The notes beneath the pieces were generated by a model. That model did no database searches, was not told the DNA's origin, and worked only from the letters and a program-made list of their open reading frames with translations. Shown in pieces: positions 1-35,962 of a DNA stretch of 64,000 nucleotides; within the stretch, counting starts at the first letter, position 1; the number at the start of each line of letters is the position of its first letter. The DNA is from Vampirovibrionales bacterium (GTDB taxonomy: Bacteria > Cyanobacteriota > Vampirovibrionia > Vampirovibrionales > JAJTHC01): NCBI GenBank assembly GCA_046341215.1, contig JBKDRU010000005.1, positions 79,233 through 143,232 of the forward strand, written 5' to 3'. Made by a program: the position numbers and the translations under genes.

Positions 1-113
1 CTTTGATATGAAAACATCAAACGCTTGTTCTTTATAAACTTTATGAGGGGATGCTTCTCGCATCCCCGATATTCTCTCTAACTGGACGCTTTAATTCAAT
101 CAAGGATTTTCAC

Positions 114-1223
114 ATGTTCCAACGTTTTTTTTCGTTTCTTTTACTCGCCTGCGCCCTCTTTTCGTCGACGTCTTTACTTCATGCCTCTGATACGACGTCT
201 ACCCACTCAACACACGCTAAGAGCTTAGTGCAATCGACGGTAAAACCTTTTTACAACGCTAAACCTCCCGTGTCCAACGTGAGCCATACCTTCATAAGTG
301 CAAGCTCTGCGCCTGTTCGCTTTTTTGTGGTGGGCGATACTGGATCTGGCTCTGAAAATCAAAAGGCCGTTGCGGCAGCGATGACTCGTCTTGCTAAACT
401 GTACGCAAATGCCAAGACGAATCCCACCGCAGTCAAGGGCGTGATGCACTTGGGTGACATTATCTATCCCGTGGGTGATGCCAAAAAGCACGGCGACCGC
501 TTGGTGAAAACCATGTACAAAGGGCTTGGGGACTTAGGCGTCCCGTTTTACTTTAGCCTCGGCAACCACGATATGCTCACGAATCACGGGCAAGATGTGG
601 TCGACAGCTTGCATATTCCGCAAAAAACCTATTACAAAGTGGCGGTGTCTCCTTTGGTGGATTTTTTCGCCATTAACACGAACACTTTCAACAAAATGCA
701 GATGCTTTGGCTTCAAACGGCTTTGGCACAAAGCAAAACGCCATGGAAGATCGTGTATGGGCATCATCCGCTCTATTCCACAGGGGCTCATGGGCAGGAC
801 AATGATTTAAAAGTCTTGCGAGCTAAACTCGAACCGCTATTCATCAAATACAAAGTGGACGCTTACCTCGCTGGCCATGATCACAACTACGAGCGTTTTG
901 CCACCGTCAGCACACAAGCCAAAGGCTTGCCATACTTGCAAATTGTTTCAGGAGGGGGGGGCGCCTATTTAAGAGAAAAACGCACCCACCCTAAAGCGCA
1001 TTGTAATCGTAATAAGCCGAACGCCTCATCCGTGCGTGATGTAACACCTTCTTCAAACAACACCTTTTTTGGCCCCTGCGAAGAACCTTTCTTTCCCACC
1101 TCCTTATTTTATGACAAAACGCATTACCATTTTCTCGATTTAGCCTTGACCGCAAAGTCGTTTAATATCAAAGTGCGAGGCACGTTAAACCAAGTATTGG
1201 ATGAAGTCACCCTTAAAAAATAA
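114..1223 (+). CDS. Secreted calcineurin-like metallophosphoesterase (purple-acid-phosphatase-like)
   Basis: Phosphoesterase motifs GDTGSG, GDIIYPVGD, GNHD, GHHPLY and GHDHNYER are present. An internal Met at 114 gives a signal-peptide-like N-terminus (MFQRFFSFLLLACALFSSTSLLHA). The ORF track begins the frame at 51. Confidence 0.7.
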   Translation: MFQRFFSFLLLACALFSSTSLLHASDTTSTHSTHAKSLVQSTVKPFYNAKPPVSNVSHTFISASSAPVRFFVVGDTGSGSENQKAVAAAMTRLAKLYANAKTNPTAVKGVMHLGDIIYPVGDAKKHGDRLVKTMYKGLGDLGVPFYFSLGNHDMLTNHGQDVVDSLHIPQKTYYKVAVSPLVDFFAINTNTFNKMQMLWLQTALAQSKTPWKIVYGHHPLYSTGAHGQDNDLKVLRAKLEPLFIKYKVDAYLAGHDHNYERFATVSTQAKGLPYLQIVSGGGGAYLREKRTHPKAHCNRNKPNASSVRDVTPSSNNTFFGPCEEPFFPTSLFYDKTHYHFLDLALTAKSFNIKVRGTLNQVLDEVTLKK

Positions 1224-1299
1224 GCCCTAAGCTTGATTGTAAAGACTTTTCGCTTTTTATGGCTTATGCTATAATCATTATGTATCCGAGTACCCCTCT

Positions 1300-1974
1300 A
1301 TGAAAGGAATGCTTATGTCTCTATCGAAAACCTTAGGTTCACGTAATGTTTGGGTCTTGTTCTTTTCCGCCTTGAGCATTTCTTTATTGGTGCTTTTGCT
1401 ATTGTTCAGCTTTTTCTTTAAAAACCTCGATTTCAACGTCAAAACCAAAGAATTGGATGAAGCCCCCATCCTTGAAACAGGCATTAACATGCAAAACACC
1501 GAAGTCACTTCACCTGAAGAAGAAGGCTTAGATCCTCAAGAATTAAAGGATCGTGTGCGCTTAAATGTGCCTGATGAAGCCGGGCGCTTAAGAAATCAAG
1601 ATAGCATCCAGAAAAAAAGAGACACCTATGTGGGTGTAGATGCCCCTAAGCGTAAAACACCCACAAAATCGACTTTGGCCCCTACCCCTGAAAGTGCCGA
1701 AAGTGTTGAAACCAATGCCGTTGAAGCGACCACGCCTCCTGTTGAAGCGACGCCAAAGGCGGTTGCCGTCGTGCAGAAGTTTCGTGTTTACTTAGGCGGA
1801 TTTTTTAGCCGTGGAGACGCTGAATCGACCCAAAGTCGCCTCAAGGCTCAAGGCTATAATTCGATCGTCAAACAAAGCAGTGGAGGCTTTGAAGTGCAAC
1901 TCGGCATTTATAACGACGAATCCACGGCTAAAAGTGTCGCCACCGCAACAGGTGCGAGCCTCGAAACATTTTAA
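1300..1974 (+). CDS. Membrane-anchored SPOR-domain (peptidoglycan-binding) protein
   Basis: It has an N-terminal transmembrane segment and a Pro/Thr-rich linker. The C-terminal ~75 aa (FRVYLGGFFSRGDAESTQSRLKAQGYNSIVKQ..GGFEVQLGIYN) fit the SPOR fold pattern. An alternative ATG at 1315 follows an AAAGGAA stretch. Confidence 0.55.
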   Translation: MKGMLMSLSKTLGSRNVWVLFFSALSISLLVLLLLFSFFFKNLDFNVKTKELDEAPILETGINMQNTEVTSPEEEGLDPQELKDRVRLNVPDEAGRLRNQDSIQKKRDTYVGVDAPKRKTPTKSTLAPTPESAESVETNAVEATTPPVEATPKAVAVVQKFRVYLGGFFSRGDAESTQSRLKAQGYNSIVKQSSGGFEVQLGIYNDESTAKSVATATGASLETF

Positions 1975-2142
1975 TACCAATTAAACGAATAAATTTCGTG
2001 TTGTCTCTTCGTTGTCGCTACGATTTTTTTTGTTCCGTTATGTACGTCTGTGTACACGCCCTCACAAAAAATCTAGGCTCCTAGAATATCCTAACACGCT
2101 ATTCACTCGTTTAAACGGTATAATATACAGGAAGCTCTAAAG

Positions 2143-2613
2143 ATGGCATTGCATACCTTTCACACCCAAACCCTCAAAGTTCGCTCGGCGGTGCTTGTCT
2201 TTCACGAAGGGCGTTTGTTGTTGATGCAACAAAACGGCAAGCCCTTTTGGGTCTTACCCGGTGGGACGCTTGAAGAAGGTGAATCCATCGCCGAATGTGC
2301 CGTGCGTGAAATGCAAGAAGAAGTGGGTATGACGGTTTCACTCGTGGGGATGTTCGCTCTTTCTGAATTTGCGGATGCCAAGCGTCATGTCGTAGACGTC
2401 GCCTTTTTAGGCGTTTACGAAGCGGGGGCCTCTTCGTGGGAGTCCCCTTACCCTGAAAACATTGATCATGTGGCATGGGTGAGCGAAGCCGAGTTTAAGG
2501 CATTGAGCCTTAAACCCGACTGTTTGCATACGATGATTGCTCAAGAATGGGACGCCCTTTCAAACGGTAGACTACCCGTTTTAAAGGATGCTTATTTGGG
2601 CTTGACCTCTTAA
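2143..2613 (+). CDS. NUDIX hydrolase
   Basis: The Nudix box GGTLEEGESIAECAVREMQEEVG (GX5EX7REUXEEXGU) is intact. Confidence 0.75.
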   Translation: MALHTFHTQTLKVRSAVLVFHEGRLLLMQQNGKPFWVLPGGTLEEGESIAECAVREMQEEVGMTVSLVGMFALSEFADAKRHVVDVAFLGVYEAGASSWESPYPENIDHVAWVSEAEFKALSLKPDCLHTMIAQEWDALSNGRLPVLKDAYLGLTS

Positions 2614-2741
2614 TTCCCCTTGATTATTTTTCTCTTGACATTGATTGTTTTTTTGCTAAAATTTGGGTGTATCTTCTAGGTACTTATTTTAAACAACCAA
2701 TGTTATCAACAATCAATCCAATGTAAGTGAAGGAATATAAT

Positions 2742-3662
2742 ATGAACCTTGCCCCAATCATGGTGCGTTCTCAAGCTGTTGAGACGCCTATTTTTCAACG
2801 TCGAACGGACAGAAAACGACCTATTTTGCCTCAAGGCCCACAACGTCAAGGGAAGCTTGAATTACCCACGCTTGCAATTTTTGCTGATTTTGACGACACG
2901 CTTACTACAGTCACCATGCAAAACGGAAGAAATAACAATGGATTACTTGCTCAACTAGGCTTTAAAGATCCTAATGGTTTTTGGGATCGGGTGGCAAAAC
3001 GAGAAAAGAGAACAGGGGTAGGTCGTATTCAAGCTTACATGGAAGAACTGCTTCATGTTGAAAAGAAAAGTAAGTTAAGAAATGTTTTGACGCCTGCTAA
3101 TTTTCATAGCTTGGGTCAGAGTATCCCTATGGCACCAAATGTACCTTTCTTTATGCCACGACTTCAAAAACTCGCCCAAAATGGAGGTCTTTCACTTGAG
3201 TTTCATATCCTTTCTAGTGGGATTGAAGAGATGATCAAGGGCAGTACTGTGGAAAAATATGCTACATCGATTCGTGCCAATCAATTTCAATATAATAAAA
3301 ACCATAAGGCAAGAGGGCTTCAACGAGTGATTGCAGCTCATGACAAGCCCACCCATATCAAAGAAATTGTAGCCGAACGAAAATTAATCATCCCACCTGT
3401 TTATATTGGGGATGGCGATACAGACATCCCTGCTTGGCAATTGGTTAAAAACCAACTTAACGGAGATGCAATTGCCGTTTACGATCCTAATAAGTCTAAG
3501 AAAGTAGAAAGAGCACAAAGATACATGGACGAAGGCTTGGTGAGCAGTATTCACCCTCGTAATTATCAACGTGGGACTTCGTTGATGAATCACTTAGGAG
3601 AGATTATTGAAACCCACGCAAAAGCAGAAGAGTCTAAGCCGAAGCTCATTCTTTTAAGCTAA
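2742..3662 (+). CDS. HAD-superfamily-like hydrolase ORFan (hypothetical)
   Basis: HAD motif I DFDDTLT and motif IV-like GDGDTD are present. The frame opens at a GTG at 2727, but the ATG at 2742 has a GAAGGA ribosome-binding site 8 nt upstream. The gene looks AT-richer than its flanks by eye. Confidence 0.45.
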   Translation: MNLAPIMVRSQAVETPIFQRRTDRKRPILPQGPQRQGKLELPTLAIFADFDDTLTTVTMQNGRNNNGLLAQLGFKDPNGFWDRVAKREKRTGVGRIQAYMEELLHVEKKSKLRNVLTPANFHSLGQSIPMAPNVPFFMPRLQKLAQNGGLSLEFHILSSGIEEMIKGSTVEKYATSIRANQFQYNKNHKARGLQRVIAAHDKPTHIKEIVAERKLIIPPVYIGDGDTDIPAWQLVKNQLNGDAIAVYDPNKSKKVERAQRYMDEGLVSSIHPRNYQRGTSLMNHLGEIIETHAKAEESKPKLILLS

Positions 3663-3683
3663 ACAACGTGTTTCTTTTAAAAA

Positions 3684-3714
3684 CAGGGATGCCTCACGGG
3701 GCATCCCTGTTTTT
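3684..3714. terminator. Bidirectional intrinsic terminator between convergent genes
   Basis: There is a perfect 10-bp stem CAGGGATGCC/GGCATCCCTG with a 5-nt loop, followed by TTTTT. Confidence 0.7.
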
Positions 3715-3758
3715 ACACAAGCACATTAAAACGAGAGATCTGCTAGAGCTAAATCAGG

Positions 3759-4883
3759 TTATTCTGTGATAATGGGAAGCAACGTCTGCCTCTCCAAAGC
3801 GTCTTTCCCCAATAAATGAGGCTTGCCTGCTTCTTCATAAGCGGAATGAAACATCATCGCCGTAAACATTGTTGCTTGTCTCATCCACAGTGGCATGAAC
3901 TTTTCCGACGTCCATGCGGCTTTTAGGGCGTCTTTATAGGTCTGTCCTTTGGAATGTTCTGCTCGTAAACAACGATCCGCGTAAGCCAAGTCAAAGAGAT
4001 TCAGAAAAGAGTATTGTAATCGCTCCGCCATGGCTGATTTAAGCCATTCCTGACTTTTCGGCTGAATCTTGGCTCGAAGAGTGGAGGCATTGGCGTTCAT
4101 GTCGCCAAGCCAAGCTTGTTCTTGCTTGGTACTTTGAGCATATTCAAAGAACTTGTGACTATTTGCTTTTATTCCAAACCCTAAATCCCACTTGTGAAAG
4201 ATGCTTGTGTGTAGGGGGTTTCGCCAGTCTTGATCAAAATGGGAACCTACTCCTAAAAGAAAAGCCAGTTCCACTAACTTTTTTTTAGAAGCAGACCCCG
4301 TTTTTTTTTCTTGGGCTTTGATCGCTTGCATCTGCTCTATAATGCGTTGGTGAAAGTGAAACACACTTTTAAAGATGTTACGATTCGGATCCGCTTCTAA
4401 GCGTTCAGGCGTCAAAGGCTGTTGATCAAAATAATTTAAGGCGAATTCCAAAGAAGCGGAGGAAAGTCCTTTGTCAATACAGGCATCTCGCTCTATTTTC
4501 CAAAAGTGCTTCCAGTATTGAGCTAGCCACCCTTTATGATCGTCTTTCAACTCAAAAAAAGCAGGGAGTGTTGGGTTATGTTTCATGTAATCTGTAAGCA
4601 TTGCTTCAAGGTTGACGTAATGATTAGGACCTCTAAGTTCGGACTTCTCGAACAAATCTTTATGTTGTGGGAGACCCGCTTTACCGTCGGCGATACGAGT
4701 GCCAGCTTTAAGGATTGGGAGATGTTCAGATATAAATTGTGCAAGATCGGGAGGCAAAAGATTAGGTAGAGCTTCAATCATCAAATCATGCGTTTCCCAT
4801 GCCCACCCCTGTCGTTGGGACGAAGCAGGCAAAGCAGACGGTGCCTTTACAAAGGCAGGGACTCTATTGGCAATAGGTAACAT
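3759..4883 (-). CDS. Zinc-dependent phospholipase C / alpha-toxin-family-like protein (hypothetical)
   Basis: The motif SHFDQDWRNPLH matches the H-[YF]-x-x-D-x-x-x-P-x-H zinc site (HYFGDIDTPYH in C. perfringens alpha-toxin, HYLGDVNQPMH in B. cereus PLC). Downstream SHKFFEYA matches the H-x-x-[FY]-E zinc site. The N-proximal W-x-W-x-x-H (WAWETH) resembles the Trp1/His zinc ligands. There is no classical Sec signal peptide. Confidence 0.5.
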   Translation of the reverse strand: MLPIANRVPAFVKAPSALPASSQRQGWAWETHDLMIEALPNLLPPDLAQFISEHLPILKAGTRIADGKAGLPQHKDLFEKSELRGPNHYVNLEAMLTDYMKHNPTLPAFFELKDDHKGWLAQYWKHFWKIERDACIDKGLSSASLEFALNYFDQQPLTPERLEADPNRNIFKSVFHFHQRIIEQMQAIKAQEKKTGSASKKKLVELAFLLGVGSHFDQDWRNPLHTSIFHKWDLGFGIKANSHKFFEYAQSTKQEQAWLGDMNANASTLRAKIQPKSQEWLKSAMAERLQYSFLNLFDLAYADRCLRAEHSKGQTYKDALKAAWTSEKFMPLWMRQATMFTAMMFHSAYEEAGKPHLLGKDALERQTLLPIITE

Positions 4884-4975
4884 TGAATGGGGGTCATTTC
4901 TATCGAACAGTATACATGGATTGGATACCTGTACAATAACGGAAATGCCTCAAAAAAGCAAGCAAAAAATACGAT

Positions 4976-6151
4976 CTACACAAAATACGATTTACGACGA
5001 ATCATCCACGCCCCAACCAGCAACATTACTAGCGACGGCAACAAACACGAAAGAGCCACCGAAAGATCGTAAGGCACCAGTCCGCCTAAGGTAAGCAAGC
5101 CCCCCTGCCCTAAACTAATGCTAATGTTGCGTCCGATATAAAGGGCAAACAAGGCGATAATCGCATACAAAAAGCCTTTGGCACTACTTTGACGAGGGGG
5201 AGCCAACGCCAAAGGAAACGCCATAAACATCAACGCCAAACAATTCAAGGGTTGAGCGAAACGCTCCCACAGCATCGTGACCCATTTACGAGGGACTTCA
5301 TTCCCAGCTTGACGTTCAGTTTCAATGTGTCGAGCCAGCTCAAAAAAGCCGACCTTAGAATGGTGAAACCCTGCCTTGGTTTGCGACAGAATGTCTTCAT
5401 CCACATTCAACAAATGGGACTTCTGTACTTGATTTAGGCTATTGACGATGTAGCGATTTTCGCCTGCCAAAGCACTAAAAATCCGCACGCCATTCAACTG
5501 CCATTGGGGGGACTGGTAATCTGCCGAATCGGCTTGAATGACTTCAATGTTACCGCTTTTACTGCGTTGCACGAAGGTAAAGCCTTCAAGGTGATTGAGG
5601 CTGGCTTTTTCGGCTCGAATCAACTTCACCCAACGCCCTTCTTTAAATAAGGGAAGCACGATGCCGTCTTTGGTGAGCTTGAGTTGAGAAGACGTCAAGA
5701 CCTCTTCACGAAGGTCATCCGCCATTTTTTGAGCAGAGGGGATCAGCCATTCGCTTGACGCAAACGTCAAGCACGCCATCACCAGTCCCAAGATGAAGGC
5801 AGGTCTAAAAATACGCCACAAACTCACGCCATTCATGCGTAAGGCAATGAGTTCAAACTGTTGATTCAAATGGCTATACACCAAGAGCACCGTAAAAAAC
5901 ACACTCGGCGGAAAGGCAAAGGCAAAGGCGAGTGGCACTTGCAGAATCAGAAATTGAAACGCCAAGCTCAAGGGTAAGCCCAAGTCTTGCATTTCTTTCA
6001 AAAAATCAAAGAGCGTATCACTAAAAAACACGATGAGTGTCACCAAAGTAATCGTCAAACCCAGCATTTTCCAAAGCTGTTTACCGATATAAGCTTCCAG
6101 TCTATTGGCAAAAAACACGCAGGCATTCCATTCGTTAAATAAAGGTAACAT
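4976..6151 (-). CDS. LptF/LptG-family LPS export permease (YjgP/YjgQ)
   Basis: It has six predicted transmembrane segments and a periplasmic beta-jellyroll-like middle region. The N-terminal pattern YIGKQLWKMLGLTITLVTLIVF fits the LptF/G family. Confidence 0.7.
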   Translation of the reverse strand: MLPLFNEWNACVFFANRLEAYIGKQLWKMLGLTITLVTLIVFFSDTLFDFLKEMQDLGLPLSLAFQFLILQVPLAFAFAFPPSVFFTVLLVYSHLNQQFELIALRMNGVSLWRIFRPAFILGLVMACLTFASSEWLIPSAQKMADDLREEVLTSSQLKLTKDGIVLPLFKEGRWVKLIRAEKASLNHLEGFTFVQRSKSGNIEVIQADSADYQSPQWQLNGVRIFSALAGENRYIVNSLNQVQKSHLLNVDEDILSQTKAGFHHSKVGFFELARHIETERQAGNEVPRKWVTMLWERFAQPLNCLALMFMAFPLALAPPRQSSAKGFLYAIIALFALYIGRNISISLGQGGLLTLGGLVPYDLSVALSCLLPSLVMLLVGAWMIRRKSYFV

Positions 6152-6229
6152 TTTTATTATATCTCGTAATTTATGGTATCATAGTTTTTGTATTCATTGG
6201 TTATAATTATTGAATTGGAGACATTCCTC

Positions 6230-6544
6230 ATGGCATTAAAAGAACTCAACGAAGCGGATTTTCAAAGTACCATCGACGCAGGCGTAACGCTTGTCGATTT
6301 TTGGGCACCTTGGTGTGGACCTTGTCGTTCGTTGGCTCCTATTTTAGAAGAGGCCGCTGGTGATTTGGAAGGTCGTGCAACGATTGCGAAAGTCAATACG
6401 GATGAAAATTTAGCATTGGCTCAAAAATACGGCGTTTCGAGCATTCCCTTTATGGTCGTGTTTAAAAACGGTCAGCCAGTGGCTCAAACCGTTGGCGTAA
6501 AGCCTAAGGGCGAAATCGTCAGCATGGTTGAAGCTCATTTGTAG
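6230..6544 (+). CDS. trxA: Thioredoxin
   Basis: The WCGPC active site is present in a ~105-aa protein with the classic thioredoxin fold pattern. The start was taken at the internal ATG (MALKELNEADF) rather than the longer ORF beginning at 6188. Confidence 0.9.
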   Translation: MALKELNEADFQSTIDAGVTLVDFWAPWCGPCRSLAPILEEAAGDLEGRATIAKVNTDENLALAQKYGVSSIPFMVVFKNGQPVAQTVGVKPKGEIVSMVEAHL

Positions 6545-6654
6545 GTTTCAAGCGCATTCTTAAACACAAGGGAGGTTTCTATAGAGCCTCCCTTTGTATT
6601 CTATAGCTTAAAGATGGTGTAATACCCGTTCACAGTTTGAAACGGAGGAAAAGA

Positions 6655-7380
6655 ATGTCTAAATCAGTTCAAGAAATAAGAAAACGCTTACGGCACTCTA
6701 TCGATTCCACCCCGAAAAACGTTTCACAATTCTTTAAAACAGGCGTAGGTGATTACGCCGAGCATGACCAGTTTATGGGTGTAACCGTTCCTACATTGAG
6801 GAAAATGGCTAAGTCGTTTGCCTCTTTAAGTTTAGACGATTTAACGGTTCTGCTACAGTCTCCCTTCAATGAAGAGCGGTTGTTAGCACTGATTATACTA
6901 AGTAACCAATACGCAAACGCAAGAGAAGAACAAAAAGAAGCCTTTTATCAGTTTTATCAGTTCCATATAAAACAAATCAACAATTGGAACTTGGTGGACA
7001 GTTCCGCACATCTTATTATGGGGGCTTATCTTTTTGAAAAAGACCGATCCGTTTTGCTAGAATTGGCGGCGTCCCCTAATTTATGGGAACGTCGAATCGC
7101 GATTGTGGCGACGTGGTATTTTATCCGCAAGGGTGATACCACGAGTACCTTTGAAATAGCTCAACGCTTGCTTCACGATAAGCAGGATCTTATTCACAAG
7201 GCCGTGGGTTGGATGCTCCGAGAAGCGGGTAAGAAAGAGGAAGCACGCTTGCTTGCCTTTCTTTCTGAACAGGCTCATCGCATGCCGAAAACGATGTTGA
7301 GATATGCGATGGAACGGCTTTCCCTCACACAAAAGATTGCTACACAATCTGCGATTGACCTACGTTTATCTTTGATTTAG
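6655..7380 (+). CDS. DNA alkylation repair protein (AlkD/AlkC-like HEAT-repeat glycosylase family)
   Basis: Pattern-level similarity to the DNA_alkylation family (WNLVDSSA..., IATWYFIRKGD, KAVGWMLRE). The ATG at 6655 has a GGAGGA ribosome-binding site 6 nt upstream. The track's 6637 start is a TTG. Confidence 0.65.
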   Translation: MSKSVQEIRKRLRHSIDSTPKNVSQFFKTGVGDYAEHDQFMGVTVPTLRKMAKSFASLSLDDLTVLLQSPFNEERLLALIILSNQYANAREEQKEAFYQFYQFHIKQINNWNLVDSSAHLIMGAYLFEKDRSVLLELAASPNLWERRIAIVATWYFIRKGDTTSTFEIAQRLLHDKQDLIHKAVGWMLREAGKKEEARLLAFLSEQAHRMPKTMLRYAMERLSLTQKIATQSAIDLRLSLI

Positions 7381-7396
7381 ACTAGAATCATGGCGT

Positions 7397-7486
7397 GGAG
7401 AAGTGTCCGAGTGGTCTATGGTGCAGTCCTGGAAAGACTGTGTAGGGGTGACTCTACCGAGAGTTCGAATCTCTCCTTCTCCGCCA
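7397..7486 (+). tRNA. tRNA-Ser (GGA)
   Basis: A 90-nt cloverleaf with a long variable arm is present. The acceptor stem is GGAGAAG/CTTCTCC, the anticodon loop is CUGGAAA, and a 3' CCA is encoded. Confidence 0.9.
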
Positions 7487-7510
7487 TTTTTATAGAAGGG
7501 TCATGGCATA

Positions 7511-9124
7511 ATGTGGACAAAACCCGAAATTTCTTTTGATGCAGAACCCTTGGCTTTTCACACGGTTACTTTAGAAGACTTGCCTCACGCTCAATTGGTG
7601 CATGAAAATGTGGATTTTCTCAATCATTTAAGACATCTTAAAGCCCTGTCTTCAGAAGATCGCTTGGGGCTTTACAAAGGCGAAGAAACAGGCTATGGCG
7701 TTGAAGAAGCGATTGCCACCTTGTATGCAGGGCATCAATTCGGATATTTCAACCCTCAACTAGGCGACGGTCGTGCCGCGATTGTCGGAACCGATGAAAA
7801 CGTCCCGATTTCACAGTTTTTCCCAAAAGCCTTTCAACATTTAGTAAACGACTTCATCCACCGAAAAAAAGAACAAGGCAACAGCGAATGGGCATTCGGC
7901 GCCTTTGATTTCTTTGAAAAACCCACATCGGTTGAATTGCAATTGAAAGGTTCAGGCATCACCCCCTACTCTCGAAGTGGGGACGGCAAAGCGGTTTTAC
8001 GGTCTTCGGTGCGTGAATACTTGGCTTCTGAAGCGGTGTTTCAACTCGGCATCCCCACCACACGAGCCGTGGCTTTGGTGCATGACGCTCAAACGCCTGT
8101 GTATCGAGAAACACGAGAAAGTGCTGCGATGGTCTTGCGAGTCGCCCCGTCCTTCTTGCGTTTGGGGCATTTGGAGTATTGGGGGCGTCACGGATACGCC
8201 GAGCGTCTAACGCCTTATATCGCCTATCTTTTCCGCACGTTTTTCAAAACCGAAGGCATTGATTTTTCGCCTGTTCAGCAATTGCAAGCCGTTTTAACGA
8301 TTTCAGCGATCCTAAATGCGGTGACGATGGCTCAATGGCAAGGCGTTGGCTTTTGTCATGGCGTCTTGAATTCGGACAATATCTCGCTGCTTGGAATGAC
8401 CCTTGACTACGGGCCTTACGGCTTCTTGGATGCCTTTGACATGGGGCATATCTGCAATCATAGCGATCACGGCGGGCGTTATGCCTATAAAAACCAGCCA
8501 GCGATTGGCTTGTGGAATTACAGCCGTCTGCTCGAAGCGTGCCAAGATTTTGTCGGTAACGATGAAGATTACCAAGCCTTGAAGGAATCGATAGAAGGCA
8601 CCTTTCAAGACGCTTTTAATACCAGCTTTTTAGCGGTGTATCGCCAAAAGCTTCGCATGGAAGACCGAAAGCTTATTCCTGATATTGAGTTTGGCGAAGT
8701 GCTTAAAAGCCTGTTGGCGTACTTGCATCAAAACAAGCTGGACTACACACGCTTTTTCACAGCGTTACCAGCGTGGGAAACAGCCTTTCAAAATGAAGAG
8801 ACTCCCCATGTGGCGGATATTGAACGCCTTGCGATGGGGATCGCTTCGCCTGAAGCGGCGTGGTGGTTGCACGAGATTTACGCACCGTACTTGCAGAAAA
8901 ATGCCTTAAGCGGAGCCTCTCAAACGCTGGTGAATCCGACTGTTGTGTTGCGGAATCACATCGCCCAAGCCTTGATTGAAGACGCCCAAGCTAATCGTTT
9001 CGATGCCTTTTCTGAAGGTTTTACACGCCTTCAAACGCCGTTTGATGAGGCTCATCATGCTCACGACTGGGCGAAAGTTCCTCCAGCATCGGCGAAAGAA
9101 ATTTGCGTGTCTTGCTCATCTTAA
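7511..9124 (+). CDS. selO: Protein adenylyltransferase SelO (YdiU/UPF0061)
   Basis: The N-terminal signature YAGHQFGYFNPQLGDGRA and SelO kinase-like fold motifs are present. The C-terminus is CVSCSS, the Cys counterpart of the Sec-containing C-x-x-U tail. Confidence 0.9.
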   Translation: MWTKPEISFDAEPLAFHTVTLEDLPHAQLVHENVDFLNHLRHLKALSSEDRLGLYKGEETGYGVEEAIATLYAGHQFGYFNPQLGDGRAAIVGTDENVPISQFFPKAFQHLVNDFIHRKKEQGNSEWAFGAFDFFEKPTSVELQLKGSGITPYSRSGDGKAVLRSSVREYLASEAVFQLGIPTTRAVALVHDAQTPVYRETRESAAMVLRVAPSFLRLGHLEYWGRHGYAERLTPYIAYLFRTFFKTEGIDFSPVQQLQAVLTISAILNAVTMAQWQGVGFCHGVLNSDNISLLGMTLDYGPYGFLDAFDMGHICNHSDHGGRYAYKNQPAIGLWNYSRLLEACQDFVGNDEDYQALKESIEGTFQDAFNTSFLAVYRQKLRMEDRKLIPDIEFGEVLKSLLAYLHQNKLDYTRFFTALPAWETAFQNEETPHVADIERLAMGIASPEAAWWLHEIYAPYLQKNALSGASQTLVNPTVVLRNHIAQALIEDAQANRFDAFSEGFTRLQTPFDEAHHAHDWAKVPPASAKEICVSCSS

Positions 9125-16439: not shown

Positions 16440-17009
16440 TTAAAATAGCCACTCATTCTTTTTATCGGTGTATGGGTCTTCACTACTGTTGCGCATTGTG
16501 GTGAAAAGTGTATCCAAAGTCGTAGGTGTGTGGAGTACTTGCTTTTTATCAATAGAGAGTGTATTTAGTAAATGCTTACTAATGTGCGTTTCTATTATTC
16601 CCATTTCTTCCAATTTACTTGTTAGGGGATAGGTCAACATATTTTTTGGGTAGGCTAGAAGTTGGTAATTGTTAACATCGAGTCCTGTTCTGCCCTTCTC
16701 TCGTATACGAAATCTGAAGGGAAAATAGGGATTTTCAGGCTCAATCCCATAGATTGACTTATAACCCCTACGTGAAGCCCTATACATATTTGAAACACTA
16801 ATACCCCTAATAAATTCCTTATCATAAGTATCTACTATACGTTGTACGGCAGCCTCCCAAGTTTCTTGAGGAATGTGGGCTACCTCCTTAAAAACGGTTA
16901 CCCCTTCACGTTGTGTATTTGAGCGTTTGGAAGGAGAGAGAGACGGAGAAGCATAGAGGGGAGGAGCCTTTAATTTCATGAGAAAAACCTTTCGAAAATC
17001 AGGGGTCAT
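16440..17009 (-). CDS. Hypothetical ORFan (189 aa)
   Basis: The ATG start was verified. No motif was recognised. It looks markedly AT-richer than its flanks by eye. It lies 66 bp downstream of the radical SAM gene on the same strand. Confidence 0.4.
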   Translation of the reverse strand: MTPDFRKVFLMKLKAPPLYASPSLSPSKRSNTQREGVTVFKEVAHIPQETWEAAVQRIVDTYDKEFIRGISVSNMYRASRRGYKSIYGIEPENPYFPFRFRIREKGRTGLDVNNYQLLAYPKNMLTYPLTSKLEEMGIIETHISKHLLNTLSIDKKQVLHTPTTLDTLFTTMRNSSEDPYTDKKNEWLF

Positions 17010-24596: not shown

Positions 24597-25517
24597 TTGA
24601 AACTATTTCAGGTATTACTCCCTTTTCGACAACAAAAACCTGAAATATACCATATCCCTCCCCCTAATTCTAAAGTGCGTAAAGTTCTAGAACATTGCCC
24701 TAGAGGTCACTTAAGTGGTGAAGGATTAATGCACTATTGGGTAGTACTTTCAGTCGACCGTTTTGTTAAAGCCATCCCCAATACTGCAAGAGGTGCTAGA
24801 GAAGCAAAGCTTAATAATGAAATTTATGACCGTTTTGTAAAAGCAGGGCTTCAAAAGCACATTCCTGAACTATATTCCTATTCTTCTTTTCCAGCAGATC
24901 CAAAAAGAAAATTACCTCGCTCATTGAAACATAATGTTATTCTGCTTGAATTTGAAAGTATTGACGGGAAATCATTAAGCCAGCTGAGACGAAAAGGCGT
25001 TTATTCACATGAAGATATTAACACCCTATTAAACGAGGAAATTGCCCCCATGTTGTTTGAAGTCTATAAAAAAACGGGCTATATTTTCTTTGATAGGAAT
25101 TCGGGGAACTTCATGGAATCGACTAATAAAAAGGGGGGGAAAGTCATTACGATGGTTGATTTTACCCCTTGTTTTGTCAAAGACTTAAGCAAGATGACAC
25201 TGAGGCAGATTTTCAGTAAAGAAGTCATGGGTGCAAAGCTTTTAAAAGAATTAACAACCCACGAAAAAGCCCTATTAAAACAGCATGAGAATGTGACGTG
25301 GGACGCCTTGCAAAAAGCAACAGAGCCCATTGAAGGGTTGGACGACCAAACGCTCAAAGCTTGGGTCGATTCAAAAATAGAATCTCGTATTGCGGAACAT
25401 CTTGCACATGAACATCACCGAAATCAATATGATTGGCGAGCCGTATTAAAAAAAACGTCCATACGATTCGGCTTTAATCGGTGGATGGTATCACTCTTGC
25501 ATGCTCTAAAAAAATAA
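24597..25517 (+). CDS. Atypical protein-kinase-like fold ORFan (hypothetical)
   Basis: A catalytic-loop-like FFDRNSGNF (D-x4-N), a DFG-like VDFTP and a VAIK-like FVKAI are present. The start is uncertain: TTG at 24597, or ATG at 24729 preceded by a GAAGGA ribosome-binding site. The gene looks AT-rich by eye. Confidence 0.3.
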   Translation: MKLFQVLLPFRQQKPEIYHIPPPNSKVRKVLEHCPRGHLSGEGLMHYWVVLSVDRFVKAIPNTARGAREAKLNNEIYDRFVKAGLQKHIPELYSYSSFPADPKRKLPRSLKHNVILLEFESIDGKSLSQLRRKGVYSHEDINTLLNEEIAPMLFEVYKKTGYIFFDRNSGNFMESTNKKGGKVITMVDFTPCFVKDLSKMTLRQIFSKEVMGAKLLKELTTHEKALLKQHENVTWDALQKATEPIEGLDDQTLKAWVDSKIESRIAEHLAHEHHRNQYDWRAVLKKTSIRFGFNRWMVSLLHALKK

Positions 25518-25546: not shown

Positions 25547-27415
25547 CTACTTTGTGGTAGCGTTAGATGAAGTTTCTTCAGGCTTTGGCGGAGCATCCTT
25601 CGCTTTTTTGAAACGATATTCGGTTTCGGTGACCACTTGATTCAACCATACAGGGAAAAAGCCAATAACCGCAGCCACTAAAACGTAACCAATCGAATCG
25701 ATAGGGGATCTCATATTACGTGCCGATTCAGATAAAATACGACGAACCTCTAAGGATTCAAGCGTTGGGAGCTTCAACGTCTTCTTGACCCAATCTAAAG
25801 CAGGTAAGGGTACCTTCGTGCCTAAAAAGTTAAACGACGCTTTTAAGTGCTTTGCCCCATCGCTTTGAAGGCGTTTAATTGTGGCATCCAAGGCATCGAC
25901 TTCTTTCATCGCACTGGCAGAATACGTATACATGGCTTTAAAGTGCTTTAAAACGCCTTGTCCATGTGAAGAATTTAAGACATCCAACACGTTTTGACCT
26001 GCTCTTAAGGCAGCCACGCTATCTTCTAATTGAGTAAAATGCTCATTTTTCAGGGTATTAAAGACTTGCGAATAGCTTAGCGCTTTACCGTCTTTGGATT
26101 TAGGATGGGTGGCCATGACTTTTTGGGTGCAGACATCGATAAAATGTTGATAGTTCAGGGCTTTGTCTGCCATGAGGTTAAAGGCAGTGATGTCACCTTT
26201 TTGCATAGCCAAATCTAAATGCCCTTTGAAAGTGGCGTAATCAGGGGTTTGTGTCGCTGCTTTTAAATAGGCTTTTTCTTTAGGAAGTTCCCCAAGCAAG
26301 GCTTCTTCTTGAATCTTTTTGTGAAGACCTTGAAGATCATCGGCGACGATTTCTTTTAAGGCCTTAAGCGTGATGTGTTCTACCGCAAAGTCTTTGTCTA
26401 AACCCTTGAGTTCAAATAAGCGACGAATCAAGGTATCGGGATCCGTATTAAGGGTGGCACGACGCATCGTCTTCGTTCCTTGTTCAAGGGAAAGCTCGTT
26501 AATCGCATCGTAGAAATGGGTGCTTAAATGTGTTTTTGCGGTGCCTACGTCTTGCGTATGAGCAATCATTTTACGCCCCCCACTATGAAGCGCATCGATC
26601 ATTTGAAGCATAAAGCGAGCCTTTGCTTTTTCATCCATCGACGCTTGGGGATTGTTCAATGTTTTCAAAAATCGCGTCGTTTCCGTTTGCCAAAGCGGGT
26701 AAGCTTGAAGGTAATCTTCCATAGGTTTGGCTAAATTACTATTCGCTTTATGCATGGCTGCAAGTTTAGCCAACGTTTCTGGTGCATTGGGGGTAAGGTT
26801 ATAAATTTCTTTAATTTGCTGATAAGTAATCGAATGAACTGGCTTACGAGGGTTTAAGCTTCCGTGCATGAGCATTAGATTGGTATGCTTAGGGCTTTTA
26901 CCTAAGCTGAATAAGGTGCCGTCTTTTTGTTTTTTAGCCAGCATCGCATGCTTAACAGGCTCTAACGCAAACAAGAACAGTGAAATAGACAACACATCCC
27001 GAATAAGCACATCTCGAATTGCACGGTAATCACGCCCTTCAGCTATACCGTCATTATCTTCATCGATTTCAGGCGCTCTGAGGTATTCAGAATGCATACG
27101 AGCAGGCATCATCGAACCAAAGAACATTAAAATCATGAAGCTCAAAGGCAACCTGGGAATAATTACCCCAAAGAGTTCAGGTGTTTTTTCAAATTTGGCA
27201 AATTCCACACTGTCCGTGAGTAGGGACGTCATTTTTGCAGTAGTCATTTGCACCGCTTTCGATGCTGGGTTGGATGTATTTCGAGCCTGAGCATTTAGGC
27301 GATCCGAAAAGTTCTTGCCTTTAATAGGAATACTTTTCACGTCATGGTAATAAAAGTGATTCAGGGCATCCACAAAGCCATTATTGTTGTAAGGGGATTT
27401 ATTAGACATCATCAT
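25547..27415 (-). CDS. Large hypothetical membrane-associated protein (622 aa), second gene of a two-gene operon
   Basis: The start is MMMSNKSPYNNNG, which is Ser/Asn-rich. Hydrophobic segments lie near residues 85-105 and 575-595. Its ATG overlaps the stop of the upstream gene (ATGA). Confidence 0.6.
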   Translation of the reverse strand: MMMSNKSPYNNNGFVDALNHFYYHDVKSIPIKGKNFSDRLNAQARNTSNPASKAVQMTTAKMTSLLTDSVEFAKFEKTPELFGVIIPRLPLSFMILMFFGSMMPARMHSEYLRAPEIDEDNDGIAEGRDYRAIRDVLIRDVLSISLFLFALEPVKHAMLAKKQKDGTLFSLGKSPKHTNLMLMHGSLNPRKPVHSITYQQIKEIYNLTPNAPETLAKLAAMHKANSNLAKPMEDYLQAYPLWQTETTRFLKTLNNPQASMDEKAKARFMLQMIDALHSGGRKMIAHTQDVGTAKTHLSTHFYDAINELSLEQGTKTMRRATLNTDPDTLIRRLFELKGLDKDFAVEHITLKALKEIVADDLQGLHKKIQEEALLGELPKEKAYLKAATQTPDYATFKGHLDLAMQKGDITAFNLMADKALNYQHFIDVCTQKVMATHPKSKDGKALSYSQVFNTLKNEHFTQLEDSVAALRAGQNVLDVLNSSHGQGVLKHFKAMYTYSASAMKEVDALDATIKRLQSDGAKHLKASFNFLGTKVPLPALDWVKKTLKLPTLESLEVRRILSESARNMRSPIDSIGYVLVAAVIGFFPVWLNQVVTETEYRFKKAKDAPPKPEETSSNATTK

Positions 27416-29085
27416 GACACCTTATCCTCCCCCACTGGTTTTGAAGCAGATGCTTTCAAGTGCTGGCGAATGGCGGCTTGCTTACTCAAAGGCAAGCCTT
27501 CCGTGGGTACAGGGGCTTGCGTATTTTTTTCATGGGGTTTGGCTTTGTTGAGCGTGACTAAGCGGTTGGCGGGGTATTCTCGTCCTCTTTGAATCGCATG
27601 AGACAAGTACCACATCCAGCCCAGCATCCACATCAAAGAACCTAGTGTAATGAAGGCTTTGGTGGCTTTTGCGGTATTGAAAGATTGAGCAAGGGCCTCC
27701 CTGAAATCACCCTTACCTGCTTTAGCAAAGAAATTACGTAAGCCTGCCACCATTAAATCACGTCCCTGGTCCATACCACGTAAATGATATAAGAAAGCCT
27801 TTTGAGTAGTTCCCTTACCCTGCATGGTATTCAGATGGATCATTTGCTTTTTCATACGTGTATTTGGGGAATGAATGGCGTTCGCCTTCAAAGCCGTGTG
27901 TTCTGCAATGTTATACAACGCTTGCATTTTAGCGGTTAACAGGGTATGTTCTTCACGACGTGTCTTATTAAAGAAAATAGAACCTGAACCATGTTCAACA
28001 TCAAACGCTAACAACTTGCCTTGAACATCAGCTATTTCTTTTATGACTTGATCCAAGGTCACATCTTTTAAGCTAAGTAGTGAATTGTTGTTGAGTTTGG
28101 TATGACTATTTAAAGACGCTTTTAATCCAAAAAGCTCGTCGTCTTTTAAGCCTTTTTTCAGGCTGTTTAAATGCCCATTACTCAGATGATAATAGGGATT
28201 GATCAAAGTATTGCCATGAAATTCGATCGCTACTTTTTCTTGACGCTTTAGATCAGGAATGCCTTCAAAAACACGTTCCACATAGCCTTTGCCGAAGGCT
28301 TCTAAGTTTTTTCGATCTTGGGGGTTAGTCGGCCGAATGGGTGTTTCAGTCAAAAACTGTTGCACATTTTGATGTTCTTGCGTCAGTTCGCTTTCAGACA
28401 TCTGCAAGGAACGACGCCCTGTCCAGCTTAAAAACTTGTTACGACTGAGTAGAGGCACTAGACCAAACACCAAGGCAGGCACCAGCAAGGAACCTGGGGC
28501 CGCTTGTACTTCTCTCATTATTTCTTCACCCAAGTTCGCCCAATTGGCATTTTGGGATTTTTTGCAGCGAATATAAATCCACTTATTTAAGCCTTTGCGT
28601 TGTTGGGCTTCAGGGTCTTTTTCAGGGTCATAAGGCACGGCCCCTCGTTGTAAAGAACGTGAAATACGAGGAAACCCCATACCCACAAAGTCTAAAATCG
28701 TAAAATCCCAAAAGAATTGTGAATCAATTTTAGATGCCAAATTTGCCGCTAGTACTGGATTCAATGTGGACGCATACCCTACTGCTGCTAAAGTCAGCAG
28801 TTCAGGCGAAATTTCAAATTTGGCTTCTTCGTGCTTCTTTTTTCGTCGCTTGAAGGGGTTGAGTCGCTGTGCTAAAGAAGTTTTTTCGGTGGCTTTCCCT
28901 TCCATTTCAGTGGCTGGAGTGGGTAAGGAAGGCTGGGTTTCGAAGGCATCGTGAGTAGGGAATTCTTCTATCATCATATTAGTTAAAGAAGGCGTGGATG
29001 CCTTTCGCCTTTGCGGCTCGTCTTGTTCAGCTTTGAGCTTTGCAAGTGTATGATAATAAAGAGACGACTGTTTAATGGACATCAT
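27412..29085 (-). CDS. Large hypothetical membrane-associated protein (~557 aa), first gene of the operon
   Basis: The frame opens at a TTG at 29097 and the likely start is ATGATG at 29085. There are two hydrophobic segments and no recognisable domain. Confidence 0.55.
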   Translation of the reverse strand: MMSIKQSSLYYHTLAKLKAEQDEPQRRKASTPSLTNMMIEEFPTHDAFETQPSLPTPATEMEGKATEKTSLAQRLNPFKRRKKKHEEAKFEISPELLTLAAVGYASTLNPVLAANLASKIDSQFFWDFTILDFVGMGFPRISRSLQRGAVPYDPEKDPEAQQRKGLNKWIYIRCKKSQNANWANLGEEIMREVQAAPGSLLVPALVFGLVPLLSRNKFLSWTGRRSLQMSESELTQEHQNVQQFLTETPIRPTNPQDRKNLEAFGKGYVERVFEGIPDLKRQEKVAIEFHGNTLINPYYHLSNGHLNSLKKGLKDDELFGLKASLNSHTKLNNNSLLSLKDVTLDQVIKEIADVQGKLLAFDVEHGSGSIFFNKTRREEHTLLTAKMQALYNIAEHTALKANAIHSPNTRMKKQMIHLNTMQGKGTTQKAFLYHLRGMDQGRDLMVAGLRNFFAKAGKGDFREALAQSFNTAKATKAFITLGSLMWMLGWMWYLSHAIQRGREYPANRLVTLNKAKPHEKNTQAPVPTEGLPLSKQAAIRQHLKASASKPVGEDKVS

Positions 29086-29361
29086 ACGAATGTGCAAAAC
29101 CTATACTTTAAAATCCCAATGAACGAAACGATGCTTGTAGCTCCTAAGTGTATGGAAGTAACCATTCACAAACGTTACAAGATTCAAAGCCACATCAGCA
29201 TAAAACCCTTTTTTAATAAGGATTGTGCCAAACGTCGTTACATTCGAAAACGAGAGAAGACGATAACACCACGATGAGAATACGAGAAAAAACGTTCGGT
29301 GAATATATTCAAAATATTAAGAATTTAGTTTACCTCATAATGGGCGTTTTGTCAAAGGTTG

Positions 29362-31276: not shown

Positions 31277-32245
31277 ATGAACTTTCCTTCTCTTGCAGTG
31301 CATCCCTTAATTTTCCCCAGTCAACATAAGACGTCTTTGACTCAAGCGTCTCCCGCAAAACGTGTTTCACCGTCACCCTTGTCGCAACGTCTGGGGGTCA
31401 CATTTGTAAATGAAGCGGGGGGAATTTTAACCAAAGCCGATGCTTATAAACGATTAATAGACTTTTTTTCTCACAATCTCAATGCTGTTTTAGAAACTTA
31501 TCTAAGTGGTAGAACCCCACCCACAGAAAAAGAACTAAAAACTTGGTTGGGTTTGCTTGAAGCAGATTTTGAAAACAAAGCCCGTCTTTTGGCAGCACTT
31601 CCCGATGAAATTAAGGTTCGGATTTCATTAGGAAGCGATCCTATATTGACCTTATATGAGCGAGAAGTCGATTTCAAGACTTTAAGAGATTGTATCGATA
31701 CTGCTCTCAAGGCAGGTAATGGCTCTTCCTACACAAATGCACTGAAATATAATATGCCATCTGACACAGATCCTAATATGATGGTTCCCATTATTTCGAT
31801 AATAGATGATAAAGGGAATCTGCCTTTTATAACTCATCATCTTAGGTTCCATGCGGTAACTAAGAACATTCCTTATAATCCCAAATTTAATCGCCTCATG
31901 CTCCAATTTACCGAGCTCCTGGGACTATCCAGAAGAACTTCCCCTAAAACTAAACAGCCTCAGTATTGGTGGACTTTTCACCAAGTAATGGCGTCTCCTA
32001 TTCATAAACGCATCCCCAAAGAGAAGATAGCTGAAACACCTTTAATGCAAGAATGGAGTTCACGTAAAAACCGAACCACACTAAGTATAGAACTCAATAA
32101 ATTATCCAGAACAGAAACTCGTTCCATCTCTACATGGATTTGGGACATATTGCGTGAAAGGATGCCAGACTACTCTTTGTCAGGAATAGCGACCCTGCCA
32201 CAAAGAGAGCTTCCCAAAAAGCTCCCTCTCCCAGCTCCTAAATAA
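31277..32245 (+). CDS. Hypothetical ORFan (322 aa)
   Basis: The ATG was verified. The N-terminus is Ser/Pro/Thr-rich with no hydrophobic signal. No motif was recognised. Confidence 0.45.
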   Translation: MNFPSLAVHPLIFPSQHKTSLTQASPAKRVSPSPLSQRLGVTFVNEAGGILTKADAYKRLIDFFSHNLNAVLETYLSGRTPPTEKELKTWLGLLEADFENKARLLAALPDEIKVRISLGSDPILTLYEREVDFKTLRDCIDTALKAGNGSSYTNALKYNMPSDTDPNMMVPIISIIDDKGNLPFITHHLRFHAVTKNIPYNPKFNRLMLQFTELLGLSRRTSPKTKQPQYWWTFHQVMASPIHKRIPKEKIAETPLMQEWSSRKNRTTLSIELNKLSRTETRSISTWIWDILRERMPDYSLSGIATLPQRELPKKLPLPAPK

Positions 32246-35622: not shown

Positions 35623-35962
35623 ACTCACGACGGGAAAGAGAGGGAAAGGGCTCCCAAAGGAGCCAAAAGGGTCGGTTTTTAAGGAGCTACTCTTCTTCAT
35701 TATGACCGCAATTTAAAGCCTTGCCTAGTGACGAAACACCATGTTTTTCTTCGAAGTAAGTGAATTCATAAAATGAGATTGTTTTTTTAATATAACAATT
35801 TGTTAACATTTAGCAATTCGTAGCTTTATAAATTGTTTATTAAAGCATAAGACACAAATAAAGTTCTTTTGTCTAAATACCCCCAAAACTAGCTTTTCGT
35901 TGCTCTATTTATTCTTCTTTATTAAATTTCCCTGTACACCTCACATGAAAGGATCACTTAAG

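Follow-up and report, generated by a model that had tools for sequence, protein, structure and literature searches.

The S1/P1 nucleases and the zinc-dependent phospholipases C (PLCs) belong to one superfamily of phosphoesterases with a trinuclear zinc site. In the bacterial nuclease SmNuc1, nine residues serve as zinc ligands (Trp27, His32, Asp71, His88, His141, Asp145, His151, His175 and Asp179; PMC11705217), and where members have been characterised, a zinc ion is bound by the backbone of the N-terminal Trp (PMC5201275, PMC11705217). In Listeria PC-PLC, a propeptide of 26 amino acids (aa) is removed by the dedicated protease Mpl, and the enzyme loses its activity if even one residue is added at the N-terminus (PMC10576769). 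Here we describe a gene at 3759-4883 on the minus strand of a 64,000-nucleotide stretch of contig JBKDRU010000005.1 from a Vampirovibrionales bacterium (the whole stretch is referred to as the window). It encodes a 374-aa, single-domain, all-alpha protein, predicted to be a tri-zinc phosphoesterase of the PLC/S1-P1 nuclease superfamily and 100% identical to the NCBI entry "hypothetical protein ACK551_01095" (Vampirovibrionales bacterium). We think it reasonably probable that this open reading frame (ORF) specifies a catalytically intact trinuclear-zinc enzyme produced as a leader-bearing, exported zymogen. What appears new, judging from sequence comparisons, is a lineage-restricted PLC/P1 branch with a hydrophilic leader in place of a Sec signal and a gene that behaves as a hotspot driven by recombination and selection.

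Fold, zinc ligands and likely chemistry

The family had to be assembled before the fold could be examined. A Pfam scan of the single sequence returned only Zn_dep_PLPC (PF00882), at E 0.098 and 13.0 bits against a gathering threshold of 26.8 bits, and gave no match at E<=10 to S1-P1_nuclease (PF02265), whose threshold is 29.5 bits. A single-sequence NCBIfam match to a mobilisation protein and an endoglucanase match from a phmmer search of the PDB were both judged spurious, and phmmer of P0058, an allele 33% identical to ours, found nothing in the PDB. A word-indexed homologue search yielded four close relatives (five with the family profile), and an exhaustive profile search was needed to recover the family, as 27 cluster representatives; the alignment holds 29 sequences. 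In this set, S1-P1_nuclease matches 23 of the 29 members (best E 1.7e-7) and Zn_dep_PLPC 17 (best E 9.2e-6), and the family profile finds in the PDB the nuclease ENDO2 (3w52, E 1.3e-6), TBN1 (5.7e-4), B. cereus PLC (6.8e-4) and SmNuc1 (1e-3).

Conservation in the alignment indicates that the zinc-site motifs did not arise by chance. H215, D219, P223, H225 and H243 are invariant, and W27, H32, D66, H88 and E247 are present in all full-length members with three conservative exceptions, one member having Glu in place of Asp66 and two having Asp in place of Glu247. The nine putative ligand positions, W27, H32, D66, H88, H215, D219, H225, H243 and E247, map one-to-one onto the SmNuc1 list. The central motif H215-x3-D219-x5-H225 (SHFDQDWRNPLH; 4209-4241, minus strand), unchanged in 29/29 sequences, aligns to SHFMGDIHQPLH of Arabidopsis ENDO2 (3w52), and the last ligand pair, H243-x3-E247 (4143-4157, minus strand), in which the second position is E or D throughout, aligns to H-x3-D of the same enzyme. 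An AlphaFold 2 (AF2) model built from the 29-sequence alignment is all-helical and single-domain, with a mean predicted local distance difference test score (pLDDT) of 84.2 and a predicted template-modelling score of 0.85; the four-sequence alignment gave an unusable model (pLDDT 41.5). Residues 1-25 are disordered in the model (pLDDT <50), and the rest has the all-alpha fold of the superfamily. Foldseek matches of the model to the PDB have weak E-values, around 1e-2, yet their ranking is consistent. An earlier note, made from the letters of the DNA, had proposed the PLC/S1-P1 nuclease fold and a hidden Markov model (HMM) search as its check. Although the single protein stays below threshold in such a search, the S1-P1 and PLC matches at family level are significant, and the family profile, the nine ligands and the helical AF2 model all back the proposed fold. 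The convergent ORF pair and every motif quoted in that note were also found again: WAWETH at aa 27, SHFDQDWRNPLH at aa 214 and SHKFFEYA at aa 242 of the tri-zinc protein, and DFDDTLT at aa 54 and GDGDTD at aa 228 of its HAD neighbour (in the GTG-start form).

All family members whose source is named come from Vampirovibrionales metagenome-assembled genomes, and the subfamily has so far been seen only in this order. It appears not to have been described before, and probably constitutes a third branch, placed between the classical S1/P1 nucleases and the PLCs of Bacillus and Clostridium. Beyond the order, the family profile finds signal-peptide proteins of Acidobacteriota, Anaerolineae, Phycisphaerae and others (E 1e-17 to 1e-27). 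These closest relatives outside the family form a "HYVGDLHQPLHTT" S1/P1-like branch (Acidobacteriota, Anaerolineae, Phycisphaerae, Fraserbacteria; loci L008-L020), of which we know no characterised protein. The branch shares the core motif and a C-terminal A-G-x-P motif with our family, and some of its members have Gly at position -1 before the Trp. It differs in that a classical hydrophobic signal or anchor sequence immediately precedes the Trp (Kyte-Doolittle maximum 2.3-2.9, against a median of 0.9 in our family) and, in some members, in a C-terminal membrane anchor.

Compared with P1 nuclease (1AK0), S1 (5FB9), AtBFN2/ENDO2 (3W52), TBN1 (3SNG) and SmNuc1 (8QJL), the protein retains a predicted nine-ligand site that includes the Trp that would start the mature chain, together with the spacings W-x4-H, H-x3-D-x5-H and H-x3-[DE], and its presequence has 26 residues, as does that of SmNuc1 according to its ligand numbering (PMC11705217). 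It departs from these enzymes in having no PF02265 match of its own, in the hydrophilic character of the presequence, in about 70 extra residues between the fourth and fifth ligands, and in having no conserved disulfides (the window protein has only two Cys, neither conserved). With the PLCs used for comparison, B. cereus PC-PLC (1AH7), Listeria PC-PLC (8CQM) and Clostridium alpha-toxin (1CA1/1OLP), it shares the zinc-ligand pattern and Glu as the last ligand, and with Listeria PC-PLC the logic of a propeptide that would need exact removal at W1. Unlike the Listeria enzyme, however, it has no Sec signal before the propeptide.

Which chemistry this site serves is a matter of degree, and the sequence leans towards the nucleases. 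From W27 to H32, W-A-W-E-T-H has the W-x4-H spacing of S1, P1 and SmNuc1, and the fourth ligand opens the stretch H88-Y89-V90-N91 (family consensus H-[FY]-[VIL]-[ND]), whose aromatic residue and Asp/Asn are, in the nucleases, part of nucleoside-binding site 1 (NBS1; PMC5201275). Of the features that mark S1-P1_nuclease, the Trp-to-His spacing and the NBS1 pair are present, and neither the GGN element nor a signal peptide next to the Trp is found. In PLCs an aromatic residue lies two positions after the fourth ligand, where our family has an aliphatic one. The features that are PLC-like or ambiguous are the terminal Glu (Asp in S1/P1 nucleases), the loss of GGN and the intermediate distance between the seventh and eighth ligands, 18 residues here and 24 in SmNuc1; the corresponding beta-hairpin is missing or shortened, and the stretch from H225 to H243 is 6 residues shorter than its ENDO2 equivalent. 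Top S1-P1_nuclease scores of family members reach about 27-28 bits, just short of the threshold, and the remote relatives L013, L008 and L020 exceed it (37-51 bits), whereas none exceeds that of Zn_dep_PLPC. In the structure comparison, the tri-zinc model is equidistant from the nuclease and PLC branches.

Genomic context adds a further hint. In the distant family loci L004-L007 (L004 7210-8936), an HD_5/HDOD gene (confirmed in L004/L005) or an HD_4 gene lies upstream, the family gene of L004 overlapping the stop codon of the HD_4 gene, and these neighbouring genes for HD-domain nucleotide hydrolases count towards the nuclease lean. Downstream of the same distant genes lies a convergent thioredoxin-reductase-like gene, followed by a tad/flp pilus cluster (CpaB/RcpC, secretin, TadZ, TadA) 1.5-3 kb from the family gene; L005 carries two family paralogues in tandem (5402-6352 and 6505-7569). 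On balance, cleavage of phosphodiesters in nucleic acids or nucleotides seems to us slightly better than an even guess, phospholipase C activity on phospholipid headgroups possible but doubtful, and action on some other phosphoester substrate unlikely.

The phospholipase alternative can be put in a specific form, in which a secreted zinc PLC cuts phosphocholine or phosphoethanolamine headgroups from prey membranes and the neighbouring HAD-IB phosphatase dephosphorylates the released headgroup. Pseudomonas aeruginosa offers a precedent in PlcH and the HAD phosphorylcholine phosphatase PchP. Consistent with such a role, Zn_dep_PLPC is the sole Pfam family touched by the window protein, P0058 reaches 25.9 bits, the top family score against the 26.8-bit threshold, and is named "zinc dependent phospholipase C family protein" by NCBI, the final ligand is Glu as in PLC, and some homologues of the HAD protein match PF06888, the PHOSPHO1-type family. 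In addition, phospholipase activity has been reported for TBN1, an S1/P1 nuclease (reference 22 in PMC11705217). Yet S1-P1_nuclease matches more family members than the PLC family does, and with better scores, the top PDB match of the profile is a nuclease, and the five-residue step from Trp to His differs from the 13 residues between W1 and H14 of B. cereus PLC. The HAD gene, moreover, is convergent, separately terminated and absent beside the tri-zinc alleles of loci L023 and L003. We therefore consider this scenario doubtful, at about the same level as phospholipase activity in general. The label "Zn-phospholipase-C/alpha-toxin-like" given in the earlier note fares worse than the fold assignment: besides the 13-bit PLC score, the nuclease-type spacing and nearest Pfam-classifiable relatives that pass the S1-P1_nuclease threshold and not that of PLC, the single-domain model, helical throughout, contains no alpha-toxin C-terminal beta-sandwich membrane-binding domain, and the alpha-toxin structure 1olp aligns to it over only 202/370 of its residues. 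Because the model has no second domain, "alpha-toxin-like" is unsupported.

Leader and diversification of the tri-zinc gene

We found that the tri-zinc family has lost the Sec signal and carries in its place a hydrophilic leader ending in [R/K/Q]-[F/Q]-G. In the window gene, this proposed propeptide or targeting leader, MLPIANRVPAFVKAPSALPASSQRQG, occupies codons 1-26 (4806-4883, minus strand) and ends directly 5' of the codon for the ligand Trp27. Across the family the leaders measure 7-54 aa, with Gly at position -1 in 24/24 sequences, Phe at -2 in 18/24 and Gln in the others, and R, K or Q at -3 in 24/24. The best 9-residue Kyte-Doolittle score of the window leader is 1.1, against about 3.0 for true signal peptides, which do occur among other proteins of the window; the family median of the same maximum is 0.91, against 2.3-3.2 in the remote relatives, where a hydrophobic signal runs right up to the Trp (as in ...TAQGFA followed by WGPAGH, or ...SAFAFS followed by WGYRLH). 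These results agree with the earlier observation that a classical Sec signal is lacking, the leader having no hydrophobic core and the ORF no in-frame start upstream of 4883. The accompanying suggestion that an internal start could permit export does not hold, because the ligand Trp itself must become the N-terminus (PMC10576769, PMC5201275).

Since the backbone of an N-terminal Trp binds zinc in the characterised members and one additional residue inactivates the Listeria enzyme, we infer a zymogen cleaved between G26 and W27: the protein would probably be made in an inactive form and be activated by endoproteolysis at this bond. Three proteins of the window carry the tetrapeptide QRQG among their 50 N-terminal residues, namely the tri-zinc enzyme, the HAD phosphatase and an ORFan of 224 aa; the expectation is about 0.1 (0.125 occurrences in all 18,735 residues) and 0/5000 shuffles reach three, for a motif that was chosen post hoc. 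Hydrophilic Pro/Ser/Ala-rich leaders that end in Q-R-x-G plus a hydrophobic residue are found in the tri-zinc and HAD proteins and in the ORFs at 53493-54167 (plus strand), 31277-32245 (plus) and 16440-17009 (minus), the last three of which have no Pfam match.

These leaders allow a bolder proposal, which we regard as improbable. A lineage-specific, non-Sec leader (Q-R-x-G here, [R/K]-F-G elsewhere) would be read by a dedicated peptidase or export pathway, and leader and tail would serve as homology arms for cassette swaps of the tri-zinc core and the HAD body, making both proteins polymorphic effectors of predation or competition. Cleavage between Gly and Trp would then release the enzyme and create its zinc-binding N-terminus in one step, so that the producer would be spared and the enzyme would become active only when exported. 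Besides the QRQG cases, two hints point this way: recombination breakpoints fall 4-12 codons past the leader motif in both genes, and the tad/flp pilus loci near the distant paralogues belong to a system whose prepilin peptidases cut after Gly. The loose motif [RKQ][FQ]G, however, is not enriched at N-termini in L004-L007 once family members are removed, and the idea of a general leader therefore rests on the QRQG cases of the window.

The second distinguishing property of the gene is its diversification. We compared six tri-zinc alleles in all, including those of a 28-kb ENA contig (L001) and two JGI contigs (L023, L024). L001 shares with the window the block SelO-Trx-LptFG-[tri-zinc]-[HAD]-NUDIX-SPOR-Metallophos, in which six neighbour proteins are 94-98% identical, with ratios of nonsynonymous to synonymous divergence (dN/dS) of 0.08-0.14. 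In the same comparison the tri-zinc protein is 87% identical, with a dN/dS of 0.67 and a dS of 0.10 that is not above that of the flanks. Nonsynonymous and synonymous differences number 59:23 in the tri-zinc gene and 75.5:195.5 in the pooled neighbours (odds ratio 6.6, Fisher p 1.3e-12), and other allele pairs give dN/dS values of 0.78 and 1.23, or about 0.4 against a 72%-identical allele. The gene is thus a diversification hotspot with strongly elevated dN/dS. Pseudogene decay was considered as the source of the high ratios and rejected, because the ORF and every ligand are intact in all six alleles and dS is not raised.

Divergence to L023 and L024 is greater and is confined within the gene. 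While LptFG (94.4%) and Trx (93.3%) remain nearly identical to their window counterparts, the tri-zinc protein is only 33% identical. Similarity persists in a 5' arm of leader and first helix (4768-4883, minus strand; blastn of window 4768-6548 to L023 85.9%; residues 1-38 52.6% aa identity) and in a 3' arm that encodes the C-terminal tail ...PHLLGKDALERQTLLPIITE (3759-3877, minus strand; blastn of window 3711-3877 to L023 82%; residues 336-374 66.7% aa identity). Between them, no similarity to the L023/L024 allele could be detected in the DNA of the hypervariable catalytic core (3878-4767, minus strand), and residues 39-335 share 26.6% aa identity. The functional catalytic core has therefore been replaced, cassette-like, between closely related strains, leaving a mosaic gene. 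Synteny ends immediately downstream of the tri-zinc gene in L023 and L003, and a metagenome scan anchored on the conserved LptFG yielded only two loci, neither informative.

Core replacement of this kind is typical of proteins that face a changing external target. The closest parallel is with polymorphic toxins, in which a constant N-terminal region is joined to a recombining, highly divergent enzymatic portion, and of which Tox-HET-C is a predicted member of the PLC/S1-P1 fold class (Zhang et al. 2012, PMC3482391). The tri-zinc gene is nevertheless not a polymorphic toxin in that sense. Its variable part is a replaced homologous domain rather than an unrelated toxin, its C-terminal tail is also constant, its N-terminus contains no RHS, filamentous or secretion-linked domain, Pfam Het-C does not match it, and there is no co-directional immunity gene, the downstream gene being convergent and an intact enzyme. 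Its sole constant parts are the leader of 26-38 aa and the C-terminal tail.

Taken together, leader and hypervariability point to a hydrolase that would be exported, face a target and act on prey or competitors. Several points weigh against this reading: by itself the protein exceeds no Pfam threshold; no protease, secretion system or cleavage product has been identified; leaders of only 7-11 aa (that of P0056 is limited to at most 11 residues) would be unusual in either a propeptide or an export signal; the dN/dS values come from six alleles; and relaxed constraint could partly explain their elevation. Some of these observations would suit a cytoplasmic housekeeping phosphodiesterase acting on nucleotides or second messengers, whose N-terminal extension is kept and whose modified metal site needs no free Trp amine. 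The absence of any recognised type of signal peptide, the shortness of some leaders, the same-strand position of the gene 92 nt 3' of lptF/G, across a gap in which no promoter or terminator was predicted, the HD_4 and HD_5/HDOD genes adjoining distant paralogues and the cleavage of c-di-GMP by SmNuc1 (PMC11705217) are all compatible with it. For a housekeeping enzyme, however, dN/dS values of 0.67-1.2 and core replacement amid flanking proteins that are 93-94% identical are unexpected. Furthermore, the strict G-W junction and the retention of nine ligands argue that the canonical site, and hence the free Trp N-terminus, is kept, and an extra N-terminal residue kills the activity of Listeria PLC (PMC10576769). 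We consequently judge a housekeeping role improbable and retain the exported zymogen as the preferred interpretation.

The HAD neighbour and the rest of the window

The gene that converges on the tri-zinc gene, at 2742-3662 on the plus strand (2727/2742-3662, the NCBI call being 306 aa from the ATG at 2742), is predicted to encode an active HAD-IB-type phosphatase with an independently terminated transcript and a swapped allele body. Motifs I (DxDxT), II (S/T), III (K) and IV (GDxxxD) are all present, and D49, D51, T53, S158, K202, G223, D224 and D228 are invariant in 16 HAD sequences. Matches to TIGR01488 (HAD-IB, E 4.6e-5) and PF12710 are both below cut-off. The earlier note had called this gene an ORFan, but 26 homologues were found, some of them matching PF06888 or PF12710, and its NCBI annotation is HAD family hydrolase. 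The protein is also distantly related to PDC-S34, a candidate family of PADLOC (PDLC05002, E 2e-42, 143.6 bits); typical members, including distant homologues of the HAD protein, match the family at about 1e-100 and some 350 bits, and ours further stands apart in its 41-aa hydrophilic N-terminal leader.

The HAD gene had been described as AT-richer, by eye, than the genome background, which was taken to suggest acquisition. Its GC content is indeed lower, but only marginally so (0.413, the window averaging 0.450 with an sd of 0.037; 16th percentile), and we discarded composition as evidence of acquisition. What the comparison with L001 does reveal, bearing out the suspicion in spirit, is a swapped, deeply divergent allele body: the first 125 nt of the gene, which encode the 41-aa leader, and the flanks are about 94% identical, whereas 2867-3675 (plus strand; blastn breakpoints 2866 and 3676) has no DNA similarity to L001 or L002, and the two HAD proteins share 44% aa identity at a dS of about 1.0, that is, saturated. 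The HAD gene of L002 is an L001-type allele.

A 96-nt spacer separates the two convergent genes. It contains a hairpin at 3678-3715 (no strand assigned) with a 17-bp stem and an A-run and T-run on either side (fold dG -33.4 kcal/mol, z -5.25), which was missing from the output of a simple terminator scan and reads as a bidirectional intrinsic terminator common to both genes; with such a shared terminator, the tri-zinc and HAD genes would be separate transcription units. On the HAD side, a promoter-like TTGACA-16-TAAAAT lies 5' of the gene (2635-2662, plus strand), with 11/12 matches and an extended -10 TG, as a consensus match only. On the other side, the LptF/LptG permease gene lies upstream of the tri-zinc gene, and a scan of the gap between them found no promoter-like or terminator-like site. 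An Rfam scan of window 1-7000 gave no match.

The proximity of two variable genes raises the possibility of a two-gene conflict module for anti-phage defence or toxin-immunity, with the HAD and tri-zinc proteins acting together. They are the only hypervariable genes in a block otherwise conserved at 94-98%, the HAD protein and its relatives match PDC-S34 at the values given above, and PDC-S34-like genes occur on seven IMG/VR contigs, each time near the contig end. The PDC families, however, are unvalidated "guilt-by-embedding" single-gene candidates (PMC12988326, PMC11514479), and the tri-zinc protein has neither a PADLOC match nor relatives on viral contigs. The genes are convergent and not co-transcribed, the intact HAD active site is atypical for an immunity protein, the two are no longer paired in L023/L024 and L003, and distant paralogues have other neighbours. 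We thus regard such a module as very unlikely, and found no support for any functional tie between the HAD and tri-zinc genes.

Beside the 72%-identical tri-zinc allele, at L003 1361-1471 (minus strand), the place of the HAD gene is taken by a C-terminal fragment of another gene (…DEFCYRFNRRWW…), 36 aa that by eye resemble the end of an insertion-sequence-type transposase and have no Pfam match. On the other side of the HAD gene, the NUDIX protein at 2143-2613 (plus strand) has a weak match to PADLOC PDC-S07 (E 2.5e-12) and is 96% conserved relative to L001; this match therefore probably reflects generic NUDIX resemblance. Between the SPOR and NUDIX genes lies a 168-nt segment (1975-2142, repeat core 1992-2094) that L001 lacks, the two genes there being 6 nt apart. 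Its repeat of about 100 nt recurs three times in a 13-kb stretch of L023 and as four matching segments in L024, with one copy directly after the tri-zinc gene, at the synteny break. Neither an Rfam match nor a significant fold was found for the segment, which looks like a small mobile intergenic element. A further small indel in the block, about 95% identical, is the segment 6611-7351, precisely absent from L001, around a DNA alkylation repair gene between Trx and SelO (PF08713, E 6e-60; 6637-7380, plus strand). Elsewhere in the window, five ORFs of 306-878 aa, at 25547-27415, 27412-29097 and 32647-35283 on the minus strand and 35900-37207 and 24597-25517 on the plus strand, have no Pfam match at E<=0.01, and several of them have Asn/Gln/Ser/Pro-rich N-termini.

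Significance for the enzyme family and its hosts

For annotation, the labels "phospholipase C", as used by NCBI for one relative, and "alpha-toxin-like" are premature. For the enzymology of the PLC/P1 fold, the family suggests that the signal-peptide cleavage that creates the zinc-binding Trp N-terminus could be replaced by another processing step, which would amount to a zymogen switch without a Sec signal. In evolutionary terms, the locus provides a clean case of cassette replacement within a gene between near-identical genomes.

To our knowledge, Vampirovibrio chlorellavorus is the only cultured member of the order, and it is an obligate predator of algae. The paper on its genome lists 0 DNases and 0 RNases and proposes that hydrolytic enzymes are delivered to the prey (PMC4451040). 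It is tempting to hypothesize that an overlooked S1/P1-like family, spread across the order, could belong to this missing degradative toolkit, a role with which its tandem paralogues and fast evolution would be consistent.

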